Assembly: GCA_903813345.2 (NCBI GenBank)
Contig: CAIIXF020000001.1
Location: 9,362,001-9,426,000 of the forward strand
From: Owenia fusiformis
Lineage: Eukaryota
Direction: 5' to 3'
DNA length: 64,000 nt
The notes beneath the pieces were generated by a model. It saw only the letters and a program-made list of their open reading frames with translations. It did not search any database and was not told where the DNA came from. Below, piece after piece: positions 1,901 through 46,198 of this stretch; the stretch's first letter is position 1; the number at the start of each line of letters is the position of its first letter. Both the position numbers and the translations under genes were made by a program.

Positions 1901-2437
1901 AATGTGAAGCACCTGCCAAAAATTAATAGGTAAAAATCTGTGTTGGAATCCTTCAAACCGGCTACGAAAACGGATGCGTTTCGGTAATAAAAGTACAAAT
2001 GTGTGTTTTTTAAACATAGTACAACATGTACAATGGGAGAACTAATACACAGAGGACCATAATTATATTCATTCGCAAACGCTTAGATCTTCTTGAAATA
2101 TATGATGCTGCGCCATTCTGTTACCCATTCTGTTGTCCCACAGTGAAAATGTCACAAGGTAAGTTGGTTGTAATGCAATATATTCGAAGCAATCTGAGTA
2201 GATTAGTTCTGATTTGGTAGTACATGTATTATTTGGACCTACGGATTCCAACATGCATTGAAAGAATGGTATAACTTTTCATACCTTAGTTAGATAATAG
2301 TTGATTTTGTGTATTGTACATTGTGTACTAGACATTTGGATTTGCTTAATTGTTGTAATGGTAATCAGGTTGATCAATAGCCCCACACTGGATGGTGTTA
2401 AAACCGTTGAATGCATATCTAATTTCTCAATCTACTC

Positions 2438-2734
2438 CCCAGATAGCACAAAGACGTCGGGCCAACGTCACTATTGGTGCCCATTGGTTGGCATGGTCGC
2501 AGTTGGCAAATTGTAGTTGGGCCAATGTTGGCCCGTCGTTGGCTGCCGCTAATACCAGGGAGCCAACAATGGCTGTACAAGAAAAGTAAATTGTGTCAAC
2601 GGTGGGCCAACGTTGGTTCTTTGGTGGGTGCCAATGTTGGACCAACGTTGGCTGGCTGGACACGCCAACGTTGGCAGCCACTGTTGGCCCACTGGCCCGC
2701 ATGCTGTTGGACCAACGTCGTTGTGCTATCTGGG
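2438..2734. mobile_element. Non-autonomous CMC/EnSpm-type MITE
   Basis: TIR CCCAGATAGCACA / TGTGCTATCTGGG, 2-bp TSD (TC), interior made of repeated CCAACGTTGG palindromes. Confidence 0.7.
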
Positions 2735-5440
2735 TCAAAGCTTGGGAAGGTGTGTCCGATCCCAACCAATCCGAAGATGCTATTTCACATGACTGTATTC
2801 CATCATATAAACAATAACCAAGTCAAGGTCACTAATTAAACGGTTGTCAAGGCGACAACTGGACTCTACAATTGAAATTGATACTTTGCCAACTTGACCC
2901 TTGCAAAAGGTTTCACTGAAAATATGTTCTTTTAGTGATTTCGTATCTTTTAGATGATTTGTAGAAAAATATTTTGCAATATGTGAAAGAATCTAAGCCC
3001 AAGACCCAATGAATTGTCTAATGACCAATCCTTTCAGGCATTGTTTCCTAAAATTGACACTCGATGCTCAGCACCTGGTGCAAATTTTGGAAGGCAATAC
3101 CTTCAAAGAATGGTCATTCCACATTGCACGAGTCCAGGGCTCAAATTCTTAAAAAATACATGAATATTTTACATACAAAATGTTTGTATATTTTGGATTA
3201 CTTGTAGTTTAGCTAACAAATTTGTGACCGTTTGTATTTTGATGCTTTTGACATGCCATTTTCGAAAAAATCTCAAGAGGCCCCAGGTTGTCTGTGCATA
3301 AAACTAATTTATCTGTATTCTTATTTTTCAGCTTTAGTACTAGTAGAGTTACAATTTCACGACCTTGCACTGTATAAGTGAATCAGAAAACTACTTTTTG
3401 AAGAAAGATGTAAGTAAAACAGCTTCTCAGGCCTCTATACCATCAAATTCACTGAGAGATACAGTGCTTAAAGCAACAGGACTCATTAGGATTTACTAAT
3501 GTAAAACGTTGCATTCACATGACAAAATTCAGCACAAAACTAACTAAAATTTGTTTAATCTGAATACTTGTAGGAGTTAATTGTGATGTTTTTCTATGAA
3601 TAAAACAAAGAATTTAAACTCCTCTCAACTTCAACCTATTTGTCACCATGGAAACAGTCTACAAGATATGATCAAAAATATATTCAAAAAGTTTGAGGCT
3701 ATAACAATATGTCACCACTTCTTTGAAATAATAAAGTTGAGAAGTTTGACTGGAACACCTTTTACTAGAACGAGCTCAAAGATTTCTCATCTGCCAAGAG
3801 TTATAAATTGTTTTTGTGGATATAGAGCTATGGAATAGTTTCATGGTAGAACAGGGGGAGGAAACATATTTTGTAACATGGGGCATATATGGTTCATACA
3901 GATTACACATGCATTGTGGATGTAAAAAAGTAAGACTAATCAATTATCTGCAGATATCAGAATCTCATTTATTTCTGTTTGAGCTATCAACATGATCATC
4001 TTTGTCCAAGAGCTGCTTTTACAAATTTATTTGCTCATTATCACCATCAGCAAATATGTTGACTTTTGATATATTAAAGTATGATGGCCAAATTATGTCA
4101 AATATTGATATATGTATTTATTGTATTATGTACACTAGACTACGACTACATAGAGATAGTAAATAGATGAAGGGAGTTGTATCTTCCACTAGCAGAATTT
4201 TGCTGGCTATCTTATTGATATTACCACACCAACTATCTGCTTTGGTTTGCACATTATCACTTTGACAAAATCAACAAAACATACATAAATTTCCTTCTCC
4301 TTTTTGTATATTAATCTTACAGCAAGCTTTCTGATGGTGCTTCAATTTACAACCTTTTATTTATATAAACTTGAATGTTTTTTAAAAGCAAGTTGAGAGT
4401 GAATGCCCTGCAATTGAATAGATGTATAGCAATTCACCAACCTAAGATGTTGTTAGAACAATTATGAGTTCCACATCTACAGGTGTAAAGTGAATTGTCA
4501 CTGCATTATAATGGTTAAGTAACAATTCAGGGCCAATCAATCTTTCCTTGCAATCACATAACGAATGCACCATTTTTGATAAGCATATCACCTCTAAGGT
4601 TATTTATCTTTAGCCTGGCCAGATTTCTGGGAGATCTGCATAGGCACATTGAATGATATAAACAGAGGACTAGACAATATAGTACAACTGAAGACTAAGT
4701 CTATAACCCACCAGATCAACCCCATCAGTGAATAAGATGCACTTTTATAAAGCTAGTCTGAATTAATTTCACTTTTGAACAGGGGTGACTGGTGACTGGT
4801 TAAGGTGGTGCAGAAATTATGTACATATAAACTCAACGAAAACCTGGCCAGGCTAGGTACTCTGTGCAGCGGAACTATATGAACAGGACATTACGATGTA
4901 GTTAAATTAGCATTTATACAAATACATCAGTACAATTTGAATAATTCTCGAAATAACTAGATTTATACAATTATAGTCTACAGCTATTGCGCATATGAGG
5001 AATAAATACTGTATGATCATAGTAGAATAAAACTGGAAAATAAATGAACAATTCACCTTTATATTTCTATGAACATGAAATGGCACATTCTCTTAAGAAA
5101 AGTGAACAAAAAATGAAAATGAATTTGGCAATTTCATGATGGGCGGTTTAATAGTTAATACAGATCTTTAGTGGTCAATATTCAGTTTCTCATTACATAG
5201 ATCAAGCATTTTACATGAAATTTGCACATTTCCCACCTTGTAGGTTCCAATGATATGTCGATCCTCATGTGTATGGGAGAAATAGTCCAGGGATGATGAT
5301 ATATAGCTAGAGGGTAGTCCATTTAAATGTGGAATGTCTGACTGCGCTCTGGTTGTCAAGTGCTCATAAAACAGCCCATACAGATAAGAAATTCACCTTC
5401 TCTTAGAATTAACTCACAACTGGTGGTGTCCTTGGTGGAT

Positions 5441-5500
5441 TTATTTTGCAATCTTGCAGTCAATAATAGTTTCTGAATCCATAGCCTGAAGAACTGTCGC
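5441..5500 (-). CDS. EIF5A: eIF5A last coding exon (ATVLQAMDSETIIDCKIAK*)
   Basis: tttattccAG acceptor, phase 0, in-frame TAA at 5443-5441; matches the eIF5A C-terminal VTVLxAM motif. Confidence 0.85.
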   Translation of the reverse strand, partial: ATVLQAMDSETIIDCKIAK

Positions 5501-5893
5501 CTGGAATAAATTGAAACTAGATAAACACAACCATCGAACATTTTGTTAAGCGTTAGACAAAATTTCCTCTCAAAATGGTTGCTATACACCTAACACACTC
5601 TGAAAAATGTTGACACTCGAGGCATTTTTGAGTTACTAGTATCCTTACAAAAAAAGTTTCCCAAGTTTTAGCAACCTTTATGACACATGCATTTCTCTTT
5701 TTCTTTTGTGCTATCATATATTCCTTCATAGGGGGCGATAAGTACAGTTTATTAAATACAATTAAACAACTTTTGGGTTTGTGGATCAGATCTCAATCCA
5801 GCTAATGTATTGCAGTCTTACATATATACCCAGCTGATGACACACTTGACGCCAACAAAAAAATTTACATAATTTTCCAGGGATTTAATAATT

Positions 5894-35405: not shown

Positions 35406-35541
35406 TAATGCATTGGCCTAACATATGCACCTGTTCAAATCCTCAGAAAATAGCCAAAATCCAATATATGACTGAAATCTGTTGCGATACCATCTGTGGT
35501 CCTTTAAAAGAAAGTTATGTCTAGTTGCACAGAGTCATTCT

Positions 35542-35657
35542 GATTTATCAGAGTCCCTCTTTACCTAACGTTTTTGAGAGATTTATCAGAGTCCCTCTTT
35601 ACCTAACGTTTTTGAGAGATTTATCAGAGTCCCTCTTTACCTAACGTTTTTGAGAGA
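35542..35657. repeat. 38-bp tandem repeat x3
   Basis: GATTTATCAGAGTCCCTCTTTACCTAACGTTTTTGAGA, three identical copies. Confidence 0.9.
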
Positions 35658-37191
35658 CTCTGATATATCATGAGGCAGAACATGTTCCTAGCCAGTGCAT
35701 TCTCCAAGTAAATCAGTGTATATGGAGGAATAAATTAGTGCCTTAGAATGCACCGTCCTGTTATCCCCTTTGTAAACTTTAATTCAATGAATTCATTATG
35801 TGGAAAACTTTTATTTAACTTGATGGTTCTTGTTTTTATATTGAAAATGAATAACTATGATAATGTTGACGTACTTCTTTTTTCTTATTGATTTCCAATT
35901 TATAATTTTAAACAATAATTATCATGCAAATGTCAACACTTGGATTATTTGGGAGGGCATTGTGTTTGGTCACACTCATTAGGCTTTGTCTGCTTATGTA
36001 ATCATGCAACTGCAGGTAATGCCTTCCCATGATACTCATGGTCAATAGAACTCTGTAAATAATTTGATTGGTCCGTACATTTTAGGGTTAAAGGAAACAT
36101 TTATTACAGTCAGTATCCCACAGTCTGAACTATTCCAAAAGGATAGTAAAGGCTGTGGATCCCACAATGGCACAGAGTAGTTTTCATTCTCATCAATACA
36201 TCTTTGCCTTGAAATCATTCGTGAAACATGTGGTTTGAACTTTATGGAAATTTGCTTTATTTTGACACACCTTTATTTAACTTATACTGTCTTTAAGGCT
36301 GCCTTATCTGAAACCCCGAAGTGTCTCTTGTTTCAAATGTTTAAACAATCAAGTCTCGTCTTGCCTTTATTTCAAACTCTAATTTCCAGACTCGAGTCCA
36401 ATCAAAAATGAATTATCTACATGGAAGTTTGTGAAGTCCTTTATTTCTGAAACTGTTTTCAATACTTAATATTTTCAGGTAACTGCTTTACAAAATCATT
36501 GTGCATTGTGAATAGTAGTTACAGAAACGAGAGTTCTGACGCACCTTTAACATTGAGTCCTATGGGGAGGGACACGATTTTTCATAGTACCCTCCCTAAC
36601 ATGGGCTCCAATGGGGAGGGACATCTGTGAGCCTCCCTGAGCTCGGGAGGCACATACGGGGACCCCATCCCTCCCCCCTCGGCGTGGTGGCGTGTACATA
36701 TTTCGGGAATCTCGGGCCCTAAGGGTAACGGACGCCCTACCCCACGTTTGTACGTTTACTGTAAGGGATAATATTCGAATTCCCGCCAAAAACAATAAAT
36801 CGATAAACCAGTACGCGTCGTAAATGTCACTGCCTTATTTATAAAGTGCGGCCCAGGCGGATTATCGATTACCTATCAACCAGGCGTTTCGTACTCGCGA
36901 GGTCTTATCGTTTTAAGGTCATCCAGCTGTCAGTTTACGAAACAAATTACTCTGGACTGTACTTTAAAGTGCGGACCTAGCTCGATTATCGATTATCAAT
37001 CAACCATCCATCAACTTTAATTAGTGTAACGTCCTTCATCGATTTAAGATCATACCGTTTAATGGATGTTACATTTGGTTGGGATAAATATTTATTTGCT
37101 AATTCGTCAACACACTTCTTTTCAAAATACATCAACTATAATACATATTTACATTATAACATTCAAAATTCTTCATTGAATCATACACAAA

Positions 37192-38289
37192 TTACAAAGG
37201 TATTAAATCGGAATCTTTAACCCACGAATCAAACTTTTTTGGCCAATATTGCCAACGCACTAAATGTTCCCGTTGCCCTCGTCTAGTTCGTGTTTTCAAG
37301 ATTTTTTCTACTTTCCAAATATCATCTTCATTCGCTTGTACTCTTTGAAGCTCCGATTGGTAAAAAGTACCCTTAATGTCTTCATTTTGAAAATCATTTA
37401 AACGATATAATGGGAGGCCCTGCCTAATAAAACGTTTCGTTACTTTAAAAATTTCCCCTGTCCAATGTTGGTCGTATTCTCTACTAAAAACATGTCTCGA
37501 CTGGGTAATTCTTACCAGAGCTCCAATGGGGAATTTAAAGATGTGATTAGATTTGGTTTTAACGATAGTTGATTTAGGATAATACATCCGCCACCAAATA
37601 ACCAATTCATCGTCTTTAGATACATTTTTAGGAGCCATTTTTATACCCCTATGCCAAGTGGCGTTATAACTCTTCACAAAGTTTTGTAAATTGTCTATAA
37701 ATCTATGGTTCTGTTTGTACGTGATATACCTCATTATTTTAGTCTTTAACGTCTTTATCAATCTTTCTGCATAGTTGGCCTTGGGGGTATTACCCGTAAC
37801 AAAATGGCGGACTCCCCATCTATTCAACAATGTTTGTACAACCTTAGCGCGGAATTCTTGACCTTTGTCCGTCCTAGTGACATCTGGTTGTCGACCTTCT
37901 TTCAATATATCATCGAAAGCCTCCGCCACTGCCTTTCCAGTTTTGGAGTGTAGCGGTCTAACCCAGGCAAAGCGAGACATAATGTCAATCGCAACCAGGA
38001 TATACTTTATCCCGTCATTCTGCGATGATATATTAGAGACATCCATAAGATCTGCATCCCATTGTTCGTCAATATGCGAGACATATACTTTGTTACGAGC
38101 GAATCGTTTCTTATAAGGTCTCTGTAGGCCATAAGCTTCTTGATTGTCCAGCCATTTCTTTATCTGATAACGGGACAGCTGGTATTTCCCATCATTTAGT
38201 ACAGCTCTATAGAGTTTGTCTGGTCCAGCAAAGGCTCCAGAATTTCGACTGTCAAAGTATAATTTCTTTAAATAGTCTCGATATGCCAT
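37192..38289 (-). CDS. Maverick/Polinton retroviral-like (rve) integrase with C-terminal chromodomain
   Basis: 365 aa intact; DDE residues in WDADLMD / RTDKGQEF / YAERLIKTLK; chromodomain VEKIL..LVRWQYWPKKFDSWV. Confidence 0.95.
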   Translation of the reverse strand: MAYRDYLKKLYFDSRNSGAFAGPDKLYRAVLNDGKYQLSRYQIKKWLDNQEAYGLQRPYKKRFARNKVYVSHIDEQWDADLMDVSNISSQNDGIKYILVAIDIMSRFAWVRPLHSKTGKAVAEAFDDILKEGRQPDVTRTDKGQEFRAKVVQTLLNRWGVRHFVTGNTPKANYAERLIKTLKTKIMRYITYKQNHRFIDNLQNFVKSYNATWHRGIKMAPKNVSKDDELVIWWRMYYPKSTIVKTKSNHIFKFPIGALVRITQSRHVFSREYDQHWTGEIFKVTKRFIRQGLPLYRLNDFQNEDIKGTFYQSELQRVQANEDDIWKVEKILKTRTRRGQREHLVRWQYWPKKFDSWVKDSDLIPL

Positions 38290-38348
38290 CTTACACTGTC
38301 GGAATCTGACTCCTTAATGACGATCTCTCTTTAAATTGCTAATATTTA

Positions 38349-39700
38349 TCACTCAGTGCTTGATTCAACAGCCTCGTTTTCGGATTCACTCTGTTCTTCC
38401 TCGGAGCTACTTTCCTGGTCTGTATCCTCTATAAAGACCTCGTCAAACTTGTGTTTGTTTTTTAAAAGTGTCTTCCTAATGGCTAAGTTCACAGAGACAC
38501 CCCTCCTCATCATATTATTTATTGAATCAATTATATTTCTGTGTAACGCATTGTCTTTTACATCAACCGTTAGCTTGACGAATTGTTTATATCCTTTCAT
38601 AAATTCTTCCTTATTCTTCGACAATAGTTTATTATCTGCCTTTTCTACAGCCTCTGTCTTATCCATCCCTCTATCCATATACTCATCCACTTTACGTCGG
38701 TGGTCTTCCTCATTCTGTCTTATAGACCACTTCTTTAAAAATGCAAATGTTTCATTTGCTTTCAAATCACCATCATCGTCATCAACGTCATTGTCTTTGT
38801 CTTGAGGAATCTTCTCCTCAATATTTTGGGTAGATTGGGTCCTCATCCTCTTGGGTAGTGGTCCCTGATCTTGACACCACTTTTTTATATGCCTCTGTAA
38901 GTCGTGAATGCTATCAAATACTAAACCACAGTCATCACAGGAAACCATGCTGTCTTCTCGAAATTCACGTTCCATGTAAGGGTAGTTCTTAACATCACTA
39001 CTATTTATAAATGTTGTCGTCGGATAGTCAACTTCTGAAATACCCTGTCTTTCAAGTAAGTGTTTTGAATCATTCATTGGTTCCTTGAAGTTGCGGGAAT
39101 CGTGATGACTTTCAAATTCAACTTCACTTTTAGTAAAGGCATTTGGTTTCAATCTGCTGTGCTCCGAAGTTTCTTGCTTCAGATCAAGAAGCAGGTAACC
39201 ATAGGGTCGACTAGTTGCGTTGGTATATGCTCTGACCAACTTGTTTCCATTTCCGGGGTACATCTGCCTCGATAAGAATGCCACCTGTTGGCGATCTCTC
39301 GGGTTATTAAACAGTATCATATAGTGAGAGTTTAAGCTCATCGATCTATTCATTTTTCCTTGATGATACATATTCTGGAGTAGGCATATCACAGACAGAT
39401 TTCGATGGTGACTGCCTTTGCTATAGAGATCACATATCCGTTGATCATTTGTTGCCTCATTCATAAGATCATCGAGAAGTATCAAAGTAGGAACTGAAGT
39501 GTCGAGGTATCTTGAATCATCAATATCCTCTGGTATTCCCTTCACAAATTCCAAATGTGGGTATTTTCTTAGCTCTTCGTAGGCAGGCTGCCATTGACCA
39601 TAACACCAGATGATTCTTCTAGGAATTGGGGATATATACCGTTCAACATTTTTGATCAAGTGCTTCATAAGCCAGGTCTTCCCCGACGATGTTGGTCCGG
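38349..39700 (-). CDS. Polinton A32/FtsK-like packaging ATPase, exon 2 (Walker A to C-terminal ZnF, helical and acidic extension)
   Basis: Begins after ttttcAG: (A)GPTSSGKT; Walker B LILLDD; SHHRNLSVICLLQN; NSHYMILFNNPRD; CDDC..F....L.RH...WC finger. Confidence 0.92.
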
Positions 39701-39802
39701 CTGAAAATACAACAAAAAATATTTTTTTAATAAATTGACATGCTCTCTTTCTATATTTAGAAACCTATCAGACTTTTAATTTCAACATGTCCATGTCTAT
39801 AC

Positions 39803-39938
39803 CTGCTATCATAGTAAACGGATGTTTCAGCATAACATCAGACTGATGCATTTTTTCTCCATGAAACTTATTCATATGCCTTGATAGGTTATCACCTCTC
39901 GTAAAATTCACACTACACTCAGAACAATTGAAAGACAT
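39803..39938 (-). CDS. Polinton ATPase exon 1 (C2H2 zinc finger plus LKHPFTMIA)
   Basis: MSFNCSECSVNFTRGDNLSRHMNKFHGEKMHQSDVMLKHPFTMIA, then a G|GT donor; phase-1 join restores HPFTMIAAGPTSSGKT; spliced protein 495 aa. Confidence 0.85.
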
Positions 39939-40109
39939 GTTGTCTGTTCAAGATCTATCAGTAAAATGACTCAAAACATGGACAACTTAAAATATATAAG
40001 AATATTCTAATGTGCAGTATTGTGATTGGTTCAAAATGTGTCAATTAAGATCAATTGTAAACATAAACAGGCATTTATAACATTATAAACTATTGAATAT
40101 TAAAGTAAA

Positions 40110-40442
40110 GGGAGGGGAGGAGGTTTGGAAGATGGAGAAGAAACAGGAGGAGGTTGGGTGGAAGTAGGAGGAGGTATGAGGTAAGGAGGAGGTAGGGAGG
40201 AGGTGGGAGGAGGTAAGGAAGAGGTTGGAGGAGGTAAGGAGGAGGTAATGATGAGGTAGGGAGGAGGTAGGAGGAGGTGGGAGGAGGTAAGGAGGAAGCG
40301 GGAGGAGGTAGAGAGGAGGTGGGAGAAGGTAAGGAAGAGGTGGGAAGAGGTAAGGAGGATATAGGGAGGAGGTAATGATGAGGTAGGGAGGAGGCGGGGG
40401 GAGGTAAGGAGGAGGTAAGGAGGAAGTGGGAGGAGGTAGGGA
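40110..40442. repeat. Purine-rich (GGAGGAGGT[A/G])n tandem array inside the mini-Maverick
   Basis: Directly visible 10-11-bp imperfect units. Confidence 0.9.
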
Positions 40443-43400
40443 AAAGATGGCTAACTTCCGCTTTAAAACCTACCCAGGCCGACTAAAAGATGCCTCACTT
40501 CCGCTATGATGTCATCCTCTTGCCCAGACAGATGCAAAATGGCTGACTTCCTGCTAGAAAGCTTCAAAATGGCCGACTTCCGGTTAAATGGCTGACTTCC
40601 GGGCTGACTTCCGGTTAAAATGGCTGACTTCCTGTCAAAATGGCTAACTTCCGGAACGTATAGTCGTGGGGTAGGGCGTCCGTTACCCTTAGGGCCCGAG
40701 ATTCCCGAAATATGTACACGCCACCACGCCGAGGGGGGAGGGGTGGGGTCCCCGTATGTGCCTCCCGAGCTCAGGGAGGCTCACAGATGTCCCTCCCCAT
40801 TGGAGCCCATGTTAGGGAGGGTACTATGAAAAATCGTGTCCCTCCCCATAGGACTCAATGTTAAAGGTGCGTCAGAACTCTCGTTTCTGTAACTACTGTG
40901 AATCTTCATTACCTATCTGATACATATTTTCCTCAGCAAACTTCATTTTCATAGAACACATGATGAATCTTTTATTCCACATTCTCAATTTTGCATCAAT
41001 CATTCAATTATGTTTCAAGGATTTTTTCCCTGGCTCACTATGAAGGATTCCATTGACATTAAAATATGTCATGGGAAAGTAGGTCATAAGAAAGAGGAAC
41101 ACTGAGTTCCACCCATTCTAATGATGCAGGTTTTGTGCTAATTTTGAATATCTTTATGGTACTTTTACAGGTAATGGGCTAATGGCTTTAGCAAATTGCA
41201 GAAATGTTAAAGTTAGTTTTTTGGTCAAAGTAGATTGTGAAATCACTAAAGATAAGTCATGAATCTTATATCATAAATGTGTTTTAAATCAACTTGTTTA
41301 CCTGAAAATAAAATGTGATCACAGCTTTTCTGAACATGCGGATGTACCCGAATGGTGTCTTATTCATAATGTAATAAATGAAATCATTGTGGTATATATG
41401 TGGAGTCTATTTCCCTTATAATAATACATTTACTTTAGTACATGGATTCTCTCCTAATATTATTTCCTTATAAATATTCAAACTTTAATCAAAAGCAGTT
41501 TCAAAATTATCGTATATTGTATTTCACCTAAAATATCGTATATGGTAAAAGAGCTGTGAAAAATATTGTATATGGTATAAAAGGGGTGAAAAAATATTGT
41601 ATATGGTATAAGAGAGCTGAAAAATATTGTATATGCATTTCCAAGACCCTCTATACACCCCCCCCCCTATCTTGCATGACTCGTTCATAAGAATTCTTTA
41701 ATTCTACCTCTTTCCCAATACGTCCTCAGACAGACAAGAAATTGAACACCCGTTTGTTTGCGTGACAGAATATGCCACGCTAAATACGTATACGCACTTT
41801 CTCTGATTATTGTCAAGCAAATACCTTTTAGGAGAAGAACATAAAAAATGCCGGAAACGAATGCCGACAAATAAATCCAAATTGATGAAGTTTAGAATGT
41901 TTTTTTTACGATTTGATAAGAGACAGAGACTAAGAAATTAAATGCGACGAAATATTCTGACAACGTTAAAGTTCTATGCGTTAACTCATTTTATCTGTTT
42001 CAAAATGTTTCATTTTATTTTGCTTGTAAAAAAGAGATTGAATAAGATAAAATAAACTATTCCGTAATATATATTGTGTTTTAATAACCTTTTTAGAATC
42101 ACAATGTAAAATAAATCCCCCGTTCCTGCCATTTTGGTAATTACACCATATAATGGGTGCAATTCAAAGTGAGAGATCTATGAACATCAGAATGCGTCCA
42201 TCCCATTAATTTGGCCAAATACAGTACATGGCATGAAACTGGCGTAAGCTTAAGTACGTCCCCCCTTTCTCTGGTAAATTATGACTATAATACACGTGTA
42301 CACTTTCCCCTCGTGATAAAGGTGCATCTAATTCAGCTAGTAATCTAAAACTTCCTTTGGAGCTGCTCCATGGAGTTAAGTTTTACTATGCAAAAGGACA
42401 AGTCAGAATTTATGCAGATAAAAAGGTTATGCAACATTATGTCTGTATGTGGGTGGGTAGCATTTTGTTTAAATTTAAATGATGACATTGAATGTTAAAA
42501 AGTTTTATCTCAAGAGATAGAACCATATAGCAATAACTATCTTTTTCAAATGAAGGACATAGAGCCTTATTGCATTAGAATTCTCCTATTTCTGTTGGAG
42601 ATACAGCTTTATAACCTTAATCTTTGGAAAGAGCATGGTGAAAATTACATTTTCTTCATTTCTTATCTCAATTCCAGACTCATATAATTGGAATGAATGA
42701 ATCAAGTAACGATGATTTTTCTGAATTTTCTGAAACTGGCGACACCTCTTTGAAAGGCTGTACAAAATAATATATCGTTCAAGATGGGTTTTGTTTATCA
42801 CTTTCTCTTAGAAACACACGGTGACGAAGTAAAGTCGTTTGGAAATTGAATAAAATGTGATAAGAAGTACCTAGAAACATGACTTGGAAATTGAAATTCA
42901 AAACGGCGACAGTAATGATCGAATGATTCATTTGGACTCTTTAAAGCCCTGGTAAAAATACATTAATGAAATTCTCATTAAAAAATGAGCGTTCACATAC
43001 GGCCTTGGGGTTATTGATGAAATATATAAAGAAGTTAAAGGTACACCACTAATTTTTTCCGAGATAACATACGGCGACATCAAATGGGACTTTTTTTGAA
43101 TTCAACGTGAACGCGTATGAAACAAGCTAGGGACGTGCTGACATTTATTTAAGGAATCAAATGGCCACGAATGATTCGCTGTAAATGTAAAATTTTTGTG
43201 TCTTTTGGGGACAACAAACTTTCGGAGAGTTCGGTGAGGGTCTAGGGGTGAGTGTATGACTGTATTGATTTTTATATCCCCAGTAAGTCCGAATCCGCCG
43301 GTTAAAGATTGTGGGATCCACAGCCTGTACTATCTCTTGGAACAGGCATTAGGTAAAGGAACATATATTCGGTGAAGAGAGGCTCTGGTAAATCAAGATG

Positions 43401-45502: not shown

Positions 45503-46198
45503 TTGAGAAATAATGCACAAGAACATGCCTCAGGAGACATCTCAAATGACACTAAAATCTATCTCGATAATTTGTTCAAACGCTACTTCACAGATATGAA
45601 AAGCGAGATTGAGAAAGCTGTCGTAGAAGTGAGTGAAAAAACGGACAAAAGACTAAACGAAATCGAAACTGAAAACAAGAAACTTAAGGATGATATAAAA
45701 GCAGTGAATGTAAAGTTGCAAGAACTCACTATTGCAATGAACGATACTGCCCAACAAACCCGAAAAAGTAGCGTACGTGTGTTTGGTATCCCGGAAAACA
45801 ATTCTGAAAATCGTGAAGACTGTGCAGAAGTTGTCTATGAACACCTCAAAACTAAGATCCAAAACTTTTCACCTGGGGACATCGAGGTTGCTCATAGAGT
45901 CCCAGGAGGCAAACCTCAGATTTCTAACCGTTCAAAACCACGCCCGATATTGGTGAAGTTTAAATTCAGAGGCGTAAAGGACGTTGTTATCCGACAGAAA
46001 AAGGCACTTAAGGGATCTGATCTGCGTGTGTATGAAGACCTTACTCCAGCAAACAGGAAACTTCTTTATGAGCTCAAACAGCATGATGGTATATCCCAAG
46101 CCTGGACTGTAAATGGAAAGGTGTTGGGTAAACTCGCCCGAAATGACAGTATTGTACAGTACACCGTAGGAGATCTTCCCCTTGGACCGAATCTCTAA
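45503..46198 (+). CDS. LINE ORF1-like protein (coiled coil + L1-type RRM/CTD), no ORF2 downstream
   Basis: RKSSVRVFGIPE, DIEVAHRV, PRPILVKF, VYEDLT, AWTVNGKV motifs; the listed start codon is TTG. Confidence 0.75.
   Translation: MRNNAQEHASGDISNDTKIYLDNLFKRYFTDMKSEIEKAVVEVSEKTDKRLNEIETENKKLKDDIKAVNVKLQELTIAMNDTAQQTRKSSVRVFGIPENNSENREDCAEVVYEHLKTKIQNFSPGDIEVAHRVPGGKPQISNRSKPRPILVKFKFRGVKDVVIRQKKALKGSDLRVYEDLTPANRKLLYELKQHDGISQAWTVNGKVLGKLARNDSIVQYTVGDLPLGPNL

Follow-up and report, generated by a model that had tools for sequence, protein, structure and literature searches.

A 4.4-kb integrase-ATPase element in Owenia fusiformis: a possible member of a capsid-less lineage derived from Maverick/Polinton elements

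The closest described systems are the canonical Mavericks/Polintons (polintoviruses, adintoviruses), which are 15-25 kb long according to an excerpt of PMC6431247, where Ginger DNA transposons are mentioned too, and which "by definition" encode the polymerase pPolB (PMC5499653, excerpt). Krupovic, Bamford and Koonin (2014) placed capsid-less Polintons on a continuum that links the viral state with that of a transposon, and nine Polintons without a major capsid protein gene were also without the protease and the ATPase, which amounts to a concerted loss (PMC4028283, excerpt). Compared with the capsid-less Polintons of that excerpt, the element described here keeps its ATPase, which is remodelled and under purifying selection, and it is the polymerase that is gone instead. 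The element comes from the window, that is, the whole 64-kb stretch of Owenia fusiformis DNA that we analysed. It shares with canonical Mavericks a chromodomain DDE integrase, an A32-type ATPase core, long terminal inverted repeats (TIRs) and a 6-bp target-site duplication (TSD); the order ATPase-then-integrase is also found in the canonical loci L068, L081, L092, L096 and L106. It differs from them in measuring only 4.4 kb, in encoding no pPolB, capsid proteins or protease, and in having an ATPase about twice as long.

Ginger elements are short, TIR-bounded and integrase-only, with a retroelement-type DDE integrase as the sole recombinase, and they set a precedent for such an integrase working as a cut-and-paste transposase. 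Their integrases are Gypsy-like, have no known ATPase partner and leave a shorter TSD; by this description, the window element is set apart by its ATPase gene and its 6-bp TSD. In IS21 (IstA/IstB), Mu (A/B) and Tn7 (TnsB/TnsC), an rve-fold DDE enzyme stands beside a DNA-binding AAA+ ATPase, and the ends carry several repeats. Here the likeness is one of layout only, the ATPase of our element being predicted to belong to the FtsK/HerA-A32 packaging type and not to AAA+. Satellites that redirect the packaging of a helper include virophages and the phage-inducible chromosomal islands, which bring a small terminase of their own. The window element would resemble them in the logic of keeping genes for integration and packaging specificity while borrowing a capsid, although the protein families and hosts are different. 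Finally, adenovirus IVa2, which binds repeats adjoining one inverted terminal repeat, is similar in its ATPase core structure, and our element has a one-sided repeat array beside one TIR; IVa2, however, acts with a self-encoded capsid and has neither the fingers nor the helical domain of the element's ATPase.

The features of the locus, in window coordinates, are as follows:

36508-36513, no strand: left TSD copy, GTGAAT (direct reading; empty-site contig)
36514-36756, plus: left TIR with terminus AGTAGT; 233 nt (36514-36746) with one mismatch, 243 nt at 98%
36548-36623, plus: two 27-nt direct sub-repeats within the TIR (36548-36574 and 36597-36623; 85% alike; repeat families D7 and D8)
36860-37006, plus: two 23-nt sub-terminal direct repeats (36860-36882 and 36984-37006; 91% alike; repeat family D9)
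37091-37096, minus (gene strand): candidate polyadenylation hexamer, about 100 nt past the integrase stop (sequence reading)
37192-38289, minus: integrase, 365 aa, rve core and C-terminal chromodomain (Pfam rve and Chromo; alignment)
38349-39700, minus: ATPase exon 2, with Walker A (GPTSSGKT), A32-type core, finger, helical domain and acidic tail
39701-39802, minus: predicted ATPase intron, 102 nt, GT..AG (conserved motif spacing)
39803-39938, minus: ATPase exon 1, with start codon, N-terminal C2H2 finger and HPFTM motif (Pfam zf-C2H2)
40145-40442, plus: purine-rich tandem array with periods 11, 21 and 32, upstream of the ATPase gene
40442-40654, plus: about seven spaced copies of a 17-21-nt motif (AAAATGGCTGACTTCCGG; repeat families D3-D5)
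40655-40897, minus: right TIR (end alignment, repeat extension)
40898-40903, no strand: right TSD copy, GTGAAT (direct reading; empty-site contig)

The element spans 36514-40897 (4384 nt). Both ends start with AGTAGT, and their end-to-end alignment gives a TIR of 233 nt with a single mismatch at column 165, stretching to 243 nt at 98% under looser extension. This alignment and direct reading bear out the AGTAGT termini, the 233-bp TIRs with one mismatch and the perfect 6-bp TSD reported in the first-pass annotation; long TIRs (233 nt) and a 6-bp TSD (GTGAAT) are both Maverick characters. The 20-nt terminus occurs twice in the window, against zero occurrences expected from 100 shuffles. It is also important that a contig from public run X6 represents the empty site: it joins 36509 to 40900, and the 4390 nt skipped are the sum of the element (4384 nt) and a single copy of the TSD (6 nt), so that the boundaries are fixed independently. 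The unit bounded by the TIRs inserted recently, is still intact and produced a 6-bp duplication. The recent transposition proposed earlier is supported, and TIR, TSD and this precise empty-site contig speak for mobility. A 6-bp duplication is, for its part, what is expected of an integrase of this type.

The family of this element is multi-copy in the host. Its words are present in 20 of the 24 listed runs, which come from six studies and are in some cases very small; in those 20, 64-73% of the sampled words were recovered, and near-identical contigs tile the interior plus the junctions to sub-terminal DNA. The element is flanked by high-copy repeats, where assemblies can err, and an assembler that collapsed Maverick ends or fused them into a chimera might imitate a short element. 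Such an artefact is extremely improbable in view of the recovery across runs and studies, the tiling contigs, and a perfect TSD and exact empty-site contig that match a real insertion.

Both genes lie on the minus strand, 59 nt apart. The integrase matches Pfam rve (7.9e-11) and Chromo (2.2e-6), and its catalytic residues D80, D141 and E175 do not vary across an alignment of 43 sequences; among 360 homologues, the best is 55% identical. Like Maverick integrases, it is a retrovirus-like DDE enzyme with the usual chromodomain, and in the integrase tree it falls into a 100%-supported clade with capsid-bearing Mavericks (L081-L083, L085 and L101). The two genes were at first considered uninterrupted, which holds for the integrase but not for the ATPase: here, a 102-nt intron is predicted because the spliced protein regains the HPFTM-x3-GPT spacing conserved in the family. 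The splice joins the zinc-finger exon to an exon beginning at the Walker A motif, a junction that none of the RNA reads spans. The integrase stop and the ATPase ATG are separated from the inner edges of their 243-nt TIRs by 435 and 716 nt, respectively, so the gaps of ~450 and ~730 bp given earlier were about right.

In ATPase exon 1, the zf-C2H2 match (E 2.6e-5) reaches 24.9 bits against a cut-off of 25.2, and such an N-terminal finger is common to many relatives. In exon 2, an A32-type core occupies aa 1-194 and a C-x2-C-x12-H-x4-C finger lies at aa ~252-275; they are followed by a domain of seven helices (aa 313-426), for which no fold match was found, and then by the acidic tail. Across 69 sequences, C254, G258, H270 and C275 never vary. 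With its two fingers, new helical domain and acidic tail, the protein is about twice the usual Maverick length. It reached no Pfam ATPase model, its relatives carry PF04665 or PF02456, and Walker A/B and the other invariant ATPase columns are present in it. Structure comparison matched the core to STIV B204 (E 2.5e-4, TM 0.57) and to two adenoviral IVa2 models (E 1.4e-6 and 2.7e-6), with a further resemblance to NCLDV A32-like ATPases. The best of the fold matches listed (E<=0.001) are packaging ATPases, with no IstB, MuB or TnsC among them, and Pfam gave no IstB match. Such evidence points to a core of the A32/B204/IVa2 type (FtsK/HerA, packaging), as in Mavericks, that carries a non-canonical extension.

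The lack of pPolB, capsid and protease genes, remarked on already at first reading, was confirmed across the window. In tblastn searches with 24 queries from related loci, among them pPolB from L007, L040, L062 and L073 and 12 capsid-module queries from L062, L068, L073 and L078, no homologues were found in the element or the 64-kb window, nor did tblastn find a pPolB remnant between ATPase and TIR. No unassigned ORF of at least 60 aa exists in the element beyond overlaps with the two genes and the TIRs. The pPolB of Mavericks sensu stricto is therefore absent, and the element has no room for it; the double jelly-roll major capsid protein, penton protein and adenoviral-type protease are absent as well.

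The ATPase has 495 homologues, and a profile of its C-terminal domain retrieved 699 cluster representatives at E<=1e-10. The finger-core-finger-helical-acidic layout recurs in every full-length row of the 19- and 69-row ATPase alignments. In 10 of 80 metagenome loci, the arrangement of the window element is repeated, with the integrase gene coming immediately after that of the extended ATPase and on the same strand. The integrase-side end was observed in L007 and in the L032/L077 family. L007 (~10 kb, with pPolB) has its integrase abutting the TIR, and its other 3.3 kb hold no ORF above 137 aa; the L032/L077 family ends 545 nt past the integrase with a terminus like that of the window element. 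Judging from these sequences, the hallmark of the lineage is a pair of genes beside one TIR, the first for an A32-type ATPase extended by zinc fingers and the second for a DDE integrase with a chromodomain. The window element displays it, with an extended finger ATPase and, downstream on the same strand and beside the TIR, the integrase. From other species, the contigs were too short to yield a second two-gene element complete from TIR to TIR; L041, the only other TIR-bounded short contig, has the ATPase without the integrase. Capsid-module matches were obtained in none of 42 main-clade loci versus 7 of 18 canonical loci, with queries taken from canonical loci themselves, so that very divergent capsid genes would be missed.

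Estimates of dN/dS and gene trees had been proposed as checks in the first-pass annotation. In relatives, dN/dS is 0.09-0.22 for the ATPase core and 0.27-0.42 for the extension in the 6 of 15 pairs whose dS is unsaturated, and the gene pair and the whole ATPase architecture are conserved there under purifying selection. In the ATPase core tree, 30 finger-bearing ATPases and that of the window lie on one side and 18 short ATPases lie opposite, 5 of the latter coming demonstrably from canonical contigs with pPolB or capsid genes. This split is weakly supported (89/48), and the window ATPase is a deep branch of unsettled position. Overall, the Maverick/Polinton origin claimed at first is well founded in the 100% integrase clade and the A32/B204/IVa2-like ATPase core. 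That the element arose by fresh deletion from a canonical Maverick of 15-20 kb is not supported, since the ATPase is the remodelled type of a large old clade in which the ATPase-integrase pair recurs. We tentatively place the element, with confidence a little short of balanced, in a large, old, capsid-less lineage derived from Maverick/Polinton; this lineage could quite possibly have lost the capsid module as a whole, that is, the major and minor capsid proteins and the protease. We found no published description of such two-gene ATPase-integrase elements, and stripped-down Maverick relatives with the extended ATPase form a large, apparently undescribed group.

A few longer relatives (L007, L037, L074 and L024) carry pPolB beside the same ATPase-integrase pair. 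Such a layout allows one to imagine a dead end, in which a ~10-kb pPolB-bearing member similar to L007 lost its polymerase half and became a passive passenger of its parent, with two leftover genes that have no special role and simply have not decayed yet. In agreement with this, TIR depth is 3.4-6 times that of the interior, instead of the twofold expected (summed contig word depths, which have no single-copy baseline). Moreover, contigs of runs X6 and X1 track the left end to 36819 and then enter a different interior, which means that other host elements share these ends. We nevertheless find the dead end quite improbable. In run X1, unique DNA beside both genes is as deep as the genes themselves (again summed contig word depths with no single-copy baseline), which argues that the short layout is the main host form and that a parent with the same genes is not more abundant than it. 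The element contigs in host runs are broken and accompanied by diverged variants, and RNA reads carry five linked differences. Other, diverged host copies exist, some transcribed in sense; transcription is weak, and it is a diverged short-form subfamily that is transcribed. Seven of the ten listed within-gene variants in host runs are synonymous. Neither does the position next to the ATPase speak for a lost polymerase half, as the window element has no pPolB remnant there and no pPolB was found in the 826 nt upstream of the ATPase in L077.

Several repeats inside the element might be bound by its proteins. The 27-nt sub-repeats of the left TIR are mirrored at 40788-40863 and are candidate integrase-binding sites. 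The 23-nt sub-terminal repeats are placed between the left TIR and the 3' end of the integrase gene, past whose stop the candidate polyadenylation hexamer lies; no such hexamer occurs in the space between the two genes. The AAAATGGCTGACTTCCGG array is situated directly inside the right TIR and only at this end, and 6 of the 10 ACTTCCG heptamers of the 64-kb window fall within it. It may represent a promoter/enhancer or a binding array for the finger-bearing ATPase.

Such a one-sided array directly inside one TIR, similar in position to the adenovirus packaging repeats that IVa2 binds beside one inverted terminal repeat, would also suit a virion-hijacking satellite. Under this scenario, a capsid-less lineage would load its own DNA into capsids of co-resident capsid-encoding Mavericks, using a packaging motor with added DNA-recognition fingers, and its own integrase would insert it in the next genome. 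There is a precedent in phage satellites, some of which bring a terminase subunit of their own and thereby steer the packaging of the helper. We consider this scenario somewhat unlikely, but it stays alive because capsid-bearing Mavericks with closely related integrases, the five loci of the same integrase clade named above, occur in the same kind of data. The ATPase core, moreover, looks like a bona fide packaging ATPase with intact motifs. It was kept although capsid loss is normally accompanied by ATPase loss (PMC4028283, excerpt), which suggests that packaging still matters. On the other hand, no helper was found within the 64-kb window, candidate helpers being found only in other records, and the whole clade, pPolB-keeping members included, would have to consist of satellites. 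Elsewhere, relatives fall into clusters at 90% identity with 37-283 members spread over many contigs, and tens to hundreds of near-identical copies per cluster look like the multiplication of a transposon within genomes. Nor do the short canonical packaging ATPases show anything comparable to the extensive and conserved remodelling seen in this ATPase.

The account that we prefer, not quite confidently enough to call it probable, is that of an intact, recent copy from a multi-copy family of an old capsid-less lineage derived from Mavericks. The element's own integrase would carry out the joining step. Since the element has no pPolB, the mobile DNA copy would come from replication in trans or from excision: either longer pPolB-carrying members of the lineage would replicate it, or it would be excised by the integrase, which would bind at the sites repeated within the 233-nt ends. 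The remodelled ATPase, in what we tentatively see as its most likely fate, would have taken a capsid-free role on the element's own DNA, gripping the sub-terminal repeats via its fingers and serving as a motor or loader in a replication or transposition complex. All characterised members of this ATPase family are capsid-packaging motors, and in the 2014 survey the Polintons without capsid genes had lost the ATPase too (PMC4028283, excerpt); a capsid-related role, as in a satellite, is therefore the more conservative reading. It is tempting to go further and suppose, unlikely as this is, a eukaryotic two-component transposon in which a packaging ATPase, through the gained zinc fingers and the new helical domain, was exapted in the manner of MuB, TnsC or IstB as a DNA-bound partner of the DDE integrase or else as a loader in protein-primed replication, in either case independently of any capsid. 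If true, the lineage would be a new class-II group of superfamily level with high copy numbers in molluscs, and some of the "polinton-like viral region" hits, which are reported to be very numerous in bivalve genomes, could be due to it (bioRxiv 10.1101/2025.04.19.649669, excerpt).

The first-pass annotation had proposed AGTAGT termini, 233-nt terminal inverted repeats (TIRs) with one mismatch and a perfect 6-bp target site duplication (TSD), and all of these were borne out: the ends align from AGTAGT over 233 nt with a single mismatch, and GTGAAT is found on both sides. With looser extension, the inverted repeat grows to 243 nt at 98%. Exactly two occurrences of the 20-nt terminus were counted in the window, where 100 shuffles gave an expectation of zero, and the window holds one copy of the element. 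We are thus dealing with a TIR-bounded unit that was inserted with a 6-bp duplication, composed as follows.

Features of the two-gene element (window coordinates)
36514–40897, 4384 nt: the element, delimited by its inverted ends and the flanking duplication
37192–38289, minus strand: integrase, 365 aa, with rve core (E 7.9e-11) and chromodomain (E 2.2e-6)
39938–39803, 136 nt, minus strand: ATPase exon 1, carrying a C2H2 finger and ending in HPFTMIA
Between exons 1 and 2, 102 nt, minus strand: predicted ATPase intron, GT..AG, from homology and splice signals
39700–38349, minus strand: ATPase exon 2, joined to exon 1 by the predicted splice

Reads and contigs of four public sequencing runs were compared with the element plus 1 kb per side. 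One contig from run X6 links position 36509 to 40900, omitting 4390 nt, which equals the element and one TSD copy. Because the flanks are a high-copy, transcribed repeat (summed word depth in X6 of 15,000–86,000, versus 2,000–5,600 inside the element), this joint most likely represents a paralogous empty site; even if paralogous, it still fixes the boundaries of the element. The host repeat occupies 35514–36513 and 40898–41897, with an RNA depth of 5–28. Many contigs and some RNA reads omit 541–576 nt of it, between about 35561–35581 and 36122–36150, and therefore the repeat has length variants. A 200-aa ORF at 45596–46198 gave a sub-threshold match to the phage Rz lysis protein (E 3.3e-4; 21.3 bits, cut-off 25.4), which is probably due to chance.

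Both the DDE integrase and the ATPase are intact. The catalytic residues D80, D141 and E175 of the integrase are invariant in a 43-row alignment. The initial description of two uninterrupted genes holds for the integrase and had to be given up for the ATPase, in which splice signals and conserved spacing point to the 102-nt intron: the open frame has no in-frame ATG before the Walker A motif, and the predicted splice recreates the HPFTM-x3-GPTxxGKT spacing conserved among relatives. Since RNA reads are absent over this intron, it is placed by homology and splice signals. The exon 1 finger (E 2.6e-5) lies slightly below the Pfam cut-off. In two related loci on other contigs, L032 (about 174–225) and L077 (about 852–905), an intron is located directly past the Walker A start, a few codons from that of the window; the lineage may thus have had an intron near the Walker A motif for a long time. 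A complex prediction for the integrase and the ATPase scored 0.01, being uninformative either way.

An AlphaFold2 model of the ATPase, built with a 69-row alignment, contains three confident modules, namely a nucleotide-binding core (exon 2 aa 1–194), a small finger (about 250–279) and a seven-helix domain (313–426), the last followed by an acidic tail. Among the matches to the core are the packaging NTPase B204 of STIV (E 2.5e-4, target TM 0.57), adenovirus IVa2, NCLDV A32-like ATPases, an adintovirus FtsK-like protein and virophage ATPases; the protein is a remodelled packaging ATPase. The central finger has the form C-x2-C-x12-H-x4-C, and its residues C254, G258, H270 and C275 do not vary across 69 sequences. 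Folded alone, the helical C-terminal domain reached a pLDDT of 82, and its model found no convincing fold match with Foldseek (best E 1.7) or with VIA-align (best Z 7.0 over 64–68 residues of a helical hairpin, within the tool's stated helical background); no fold was therefore assigned, and this does not prove a new one. When the ATPase profile was run against PDB sequences, only zinc-finger matches and marginal P-loop matches came up. A second, free-standing copy of the helical domain is encoded downstream of the extended ATPase in the related locus L043 (2135–3022), and is 24–36% identical to the corresponding part of the ATPase in 25 other loci. C2H2 zinc fingers also stand at the start of pPolB in two relatives, L007 (7128–7814, minus strand) and L040 (2436–7043), so finger gain is not confined to the ATPase.

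What such an ATPase does in an element of this size can be read in two ways. DNA packaging is the function of all known members of this ATPase family, and capsid loss was accompanied by ATPase loss in the 2014 Polinton survey (PMC4028283). Both points argue for a satellite whose ATPase packages the element into the capsid of a helper, a reading that we consider possible but somewhat less likely than a capsid-free role.

Searching metagenome contigs yielded 80 related loci. Both genes were present in 13 of them, and in 10 of these 13 an extended ATPase is directly followed by the integrase on its own strand, the arrangement also found in the window; the gene pair is therefore conserved. The ATPases were either short (about 195–215 aa between Walker A and the stop, fingers lacking) or extended (390 aa or more, fingers present). 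In a maximum-likelihood tree of the ATPase core (73 rows), 18 short ATPases, five of them from contigs shown to be canonical (L040, L062, L068, L073 and L078), were placed on one side, while all 30 finger-bearing sequences, their degraded copies and the window sequence were placed on the other. The canonical Polinton L073 additionally carries a 2OG-Fe(II) oxygenase gene (4206–4895, E 1.3e-20) between pPolB and the ATPase.

Capsid-module queries, taken from four short-clade loci, matched 7 of the 18 short-clade loci, none of the 42 in the main extended clade and 1 of 11 other extended loci. Next to the extended ATPase, pPolB is present in divergent orientation in L007, L037 and L074, and upstream in L024. 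The L007 contig, at least 10.4 kb long, has inverted ends and encodes a broken pPolB, the ATPase and an integrase adjoining the end; its remaining 3.3–3.4 kb or so holds no ORF longer than 137 aa and gave no tblastx match to canonical or any other loci. Detectable capsid genes are thus absent from the whole clade, members with pPolB included, which speaks for a capsid-free role of the ATPase on the element's own DNA. We tentatively favour this reading, though at somewhat less than an even chance; the extensive and stable remodelling of the ATPase also argues for it.

L077 is a deletion derivative of L032. The two cease to be alike 545 nt past the stop of the integrase, where the terminus ...TTAACTACT closely resembles the ...GTAACTACT of the window. 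L077 has no pPolB within 826 nt upstream of its ATPase, and its terminus has no left-end copy within the contig, so that a second complete two-gene element was not delimited. A 4.2-kb contig, L041 (1–4242), is flanked by 340-nt inverted repeats (94%) and encodes an extended ATPase and a CARD-RING ORF (CARD E 2.4e-13) without an integrase, representing other cargo on the same kind of chassis.

Scanning prokaryotic genome records with the integrase gave 46 further loci (L081–L126), most of them canonical Mavericks with the gene order integrase, minor and major capsid proteins, protease, short ATPase and pPolB; many carry capsid, protease and pPolB genes. Their bacterial and archaeal MAG labels include Sedimenticola, Ignavibacteria, Nomurabacteria and Endozoicomonas, and they have the appearance of eukaryotic or viral DNA that was wrongly binned as prokaryotic. 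In an integrase tree (C-terminal 206 columns, 37 rows), the window sequence belongs to a 100%-supported clade of 12, composed of all six integrases linked to extended ATPases, five from capsid-bearing elements (L081, L082, L083, L085 and L101) and L084. The lineage thus descends from Mavericks with that range of hosts, among which possible helpers are present too. Five of the six linked integrases group in a clade of their own with a support of 93. In the ATPase tree, the short/extended split received only 89/48, and the window sequence branches deeply without a resolved position. Overall, the element, having neither pPolB nor a capsid module, falls outside the canonical Maverick definition, though it is clearly Maverick-derived, with a distinctive conserved ATPase.

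The family is large. At E≤1e-3, we found 495 ATPase homologues, the best full-length ones being 38–40% identical, 470–530 aa long and laid out as in the element. The integrase has 360 homologues, with a top identity of 55%. The named ATPase homologues are all bivalve (Mizuhopecten, Pecten, Pinctada and records labelled Solemya gill symbiont), and the named integrases are bivalve too. A profile of the finger and helical domain matched 1950, 699 and 86 cluster representatives at E≤1e-3, E≤1e-10 and E≤1e-30, respectively. In 148 of the 150 profile matches listed, the domain stands at the C-terminal end of 380–560-aa proteins or in fragments, the other two being multi-finger proteins matched through the finger alone. 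Clusters at 90% identity contained 53, 37 and 68 members for the ATPase and 283 and 78 for the integrase, spread across many different large contigs, so these are multi-copy families elsewhere as well. This transposon-like multiplication of relatives is a further argument for a capsid-free role. Scanning IMG/VR with the ATPase alignment gave five pattern matches, none of which was confirmed. Among 15 related locus pairs, dS was unsaturated (0.06–0.67) in six, and in these dN/dS was 0.09–0.22 for the ATPase core and 0.27–0.42 for the extension. In host runs, 7 of the 10 listed within-gene differences were synonymous (40 of 266 differences being listed); the three non-synonymous ones, I198V, H195Y and R4Q, are all in the integrase.

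Between 64 and 73% of sampled words were present in 20 of the 24 runs listed (six studies, one organism label), one of the 20 having only 32 million letters of contigs; none of the listed runs that contain these words is recorded as RNA. The interior is covered by near-identical contig pieces of 166–822 nt (depth about 1,470–1,950 in X6 and 57–77 in run X1) and by diverged ones with 11–13 differences per about 166 nt. Unique DNA adjoining both genes has an X1 depth of 66–72 versus 61–111 for the genes, and thus the short layout is their main context. TIR bins reach 3.4–6 times the interior depth, these depths having no single-copy baseline and giving no copy number, while X6 and X1 contigs follow the left end to 36819, 63 nt inside the inner edge of the TIR, and then continue into unrelated sequence; other elements in the host therefore share these ends. 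In two raw RNA runs, depth over the genes was 0–8, and zero over exon 1 and the intron. First mates were mostly plus strand, which would mean sense transcription provided that the library is stranded in the common way. At 37672–37729, five linked differences are present in most RNA reads, which therefore stem from a diverged copy. The host harbours several diverged copies, at least one of which is transcribed.

Each TIR holds two 27-nt sub-repeats, and an array of about seven AAAATGGCTGACTTCCGG-like units lies just inward of the right TIR, on this side only. All of these are candidate protein-binding sites; the array could equally serve the ATPase gene as promoter or enhancer, the start of this gene being about 500–700 nt downstream on the opposite strand. 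The ACTTCCG array is not conserved in the 80 related loci, the best case being L026 with three scattered copies. A protein-coding nature of the right-hand repeats was rejected, the sole ORF there being a 69-aa frame overlapping the TIR.

As for the mechanism, the joining step would be carried out by the element's own integrase. As the element lacks pPolB, its mobile DNA copy might arise through replication in trans by longer lineage members sharing its ends or through integrase-mediated excision.

In the full-text literature searched, a scope that leaves out Repbase, subscription journals and closed supplements, we found neither a two-gene ATPase–integrase derivative nor a finger-bearing Maverick ATPase described. 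The same applies to those parts of PMC4028283, PMC6431247, PMC10748475, PMC10294476 and bioRxiv 10.1101/2025.04.19.649669 that were covered, the supplementary tables of the last being able to list such elements. Among the literature matches listed, "C2H2" was not found in papers with Polinton terms.

Mavericks/Polintons stand at the border between transposons and viruses, and in the accepted picture the packaging ATPase is a part of the capsid module that is lost with the capsid genes. The lineage described here contradicts this picture, since its capsid genes are gone while the ATPase has been retained, enlarged and conserved. Either reading of the ATPase is new for eukaryotic mobile DNA: a satellite would mean a long-lived integrating family with its own packaging motor, and a capsid-free role would mean a packaging motor reused for transposition. 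In practice, screens for endogenous viruses that rely on the ATPase would score 4-kb transposons of this kind among the viral regions of mollusc genomes.
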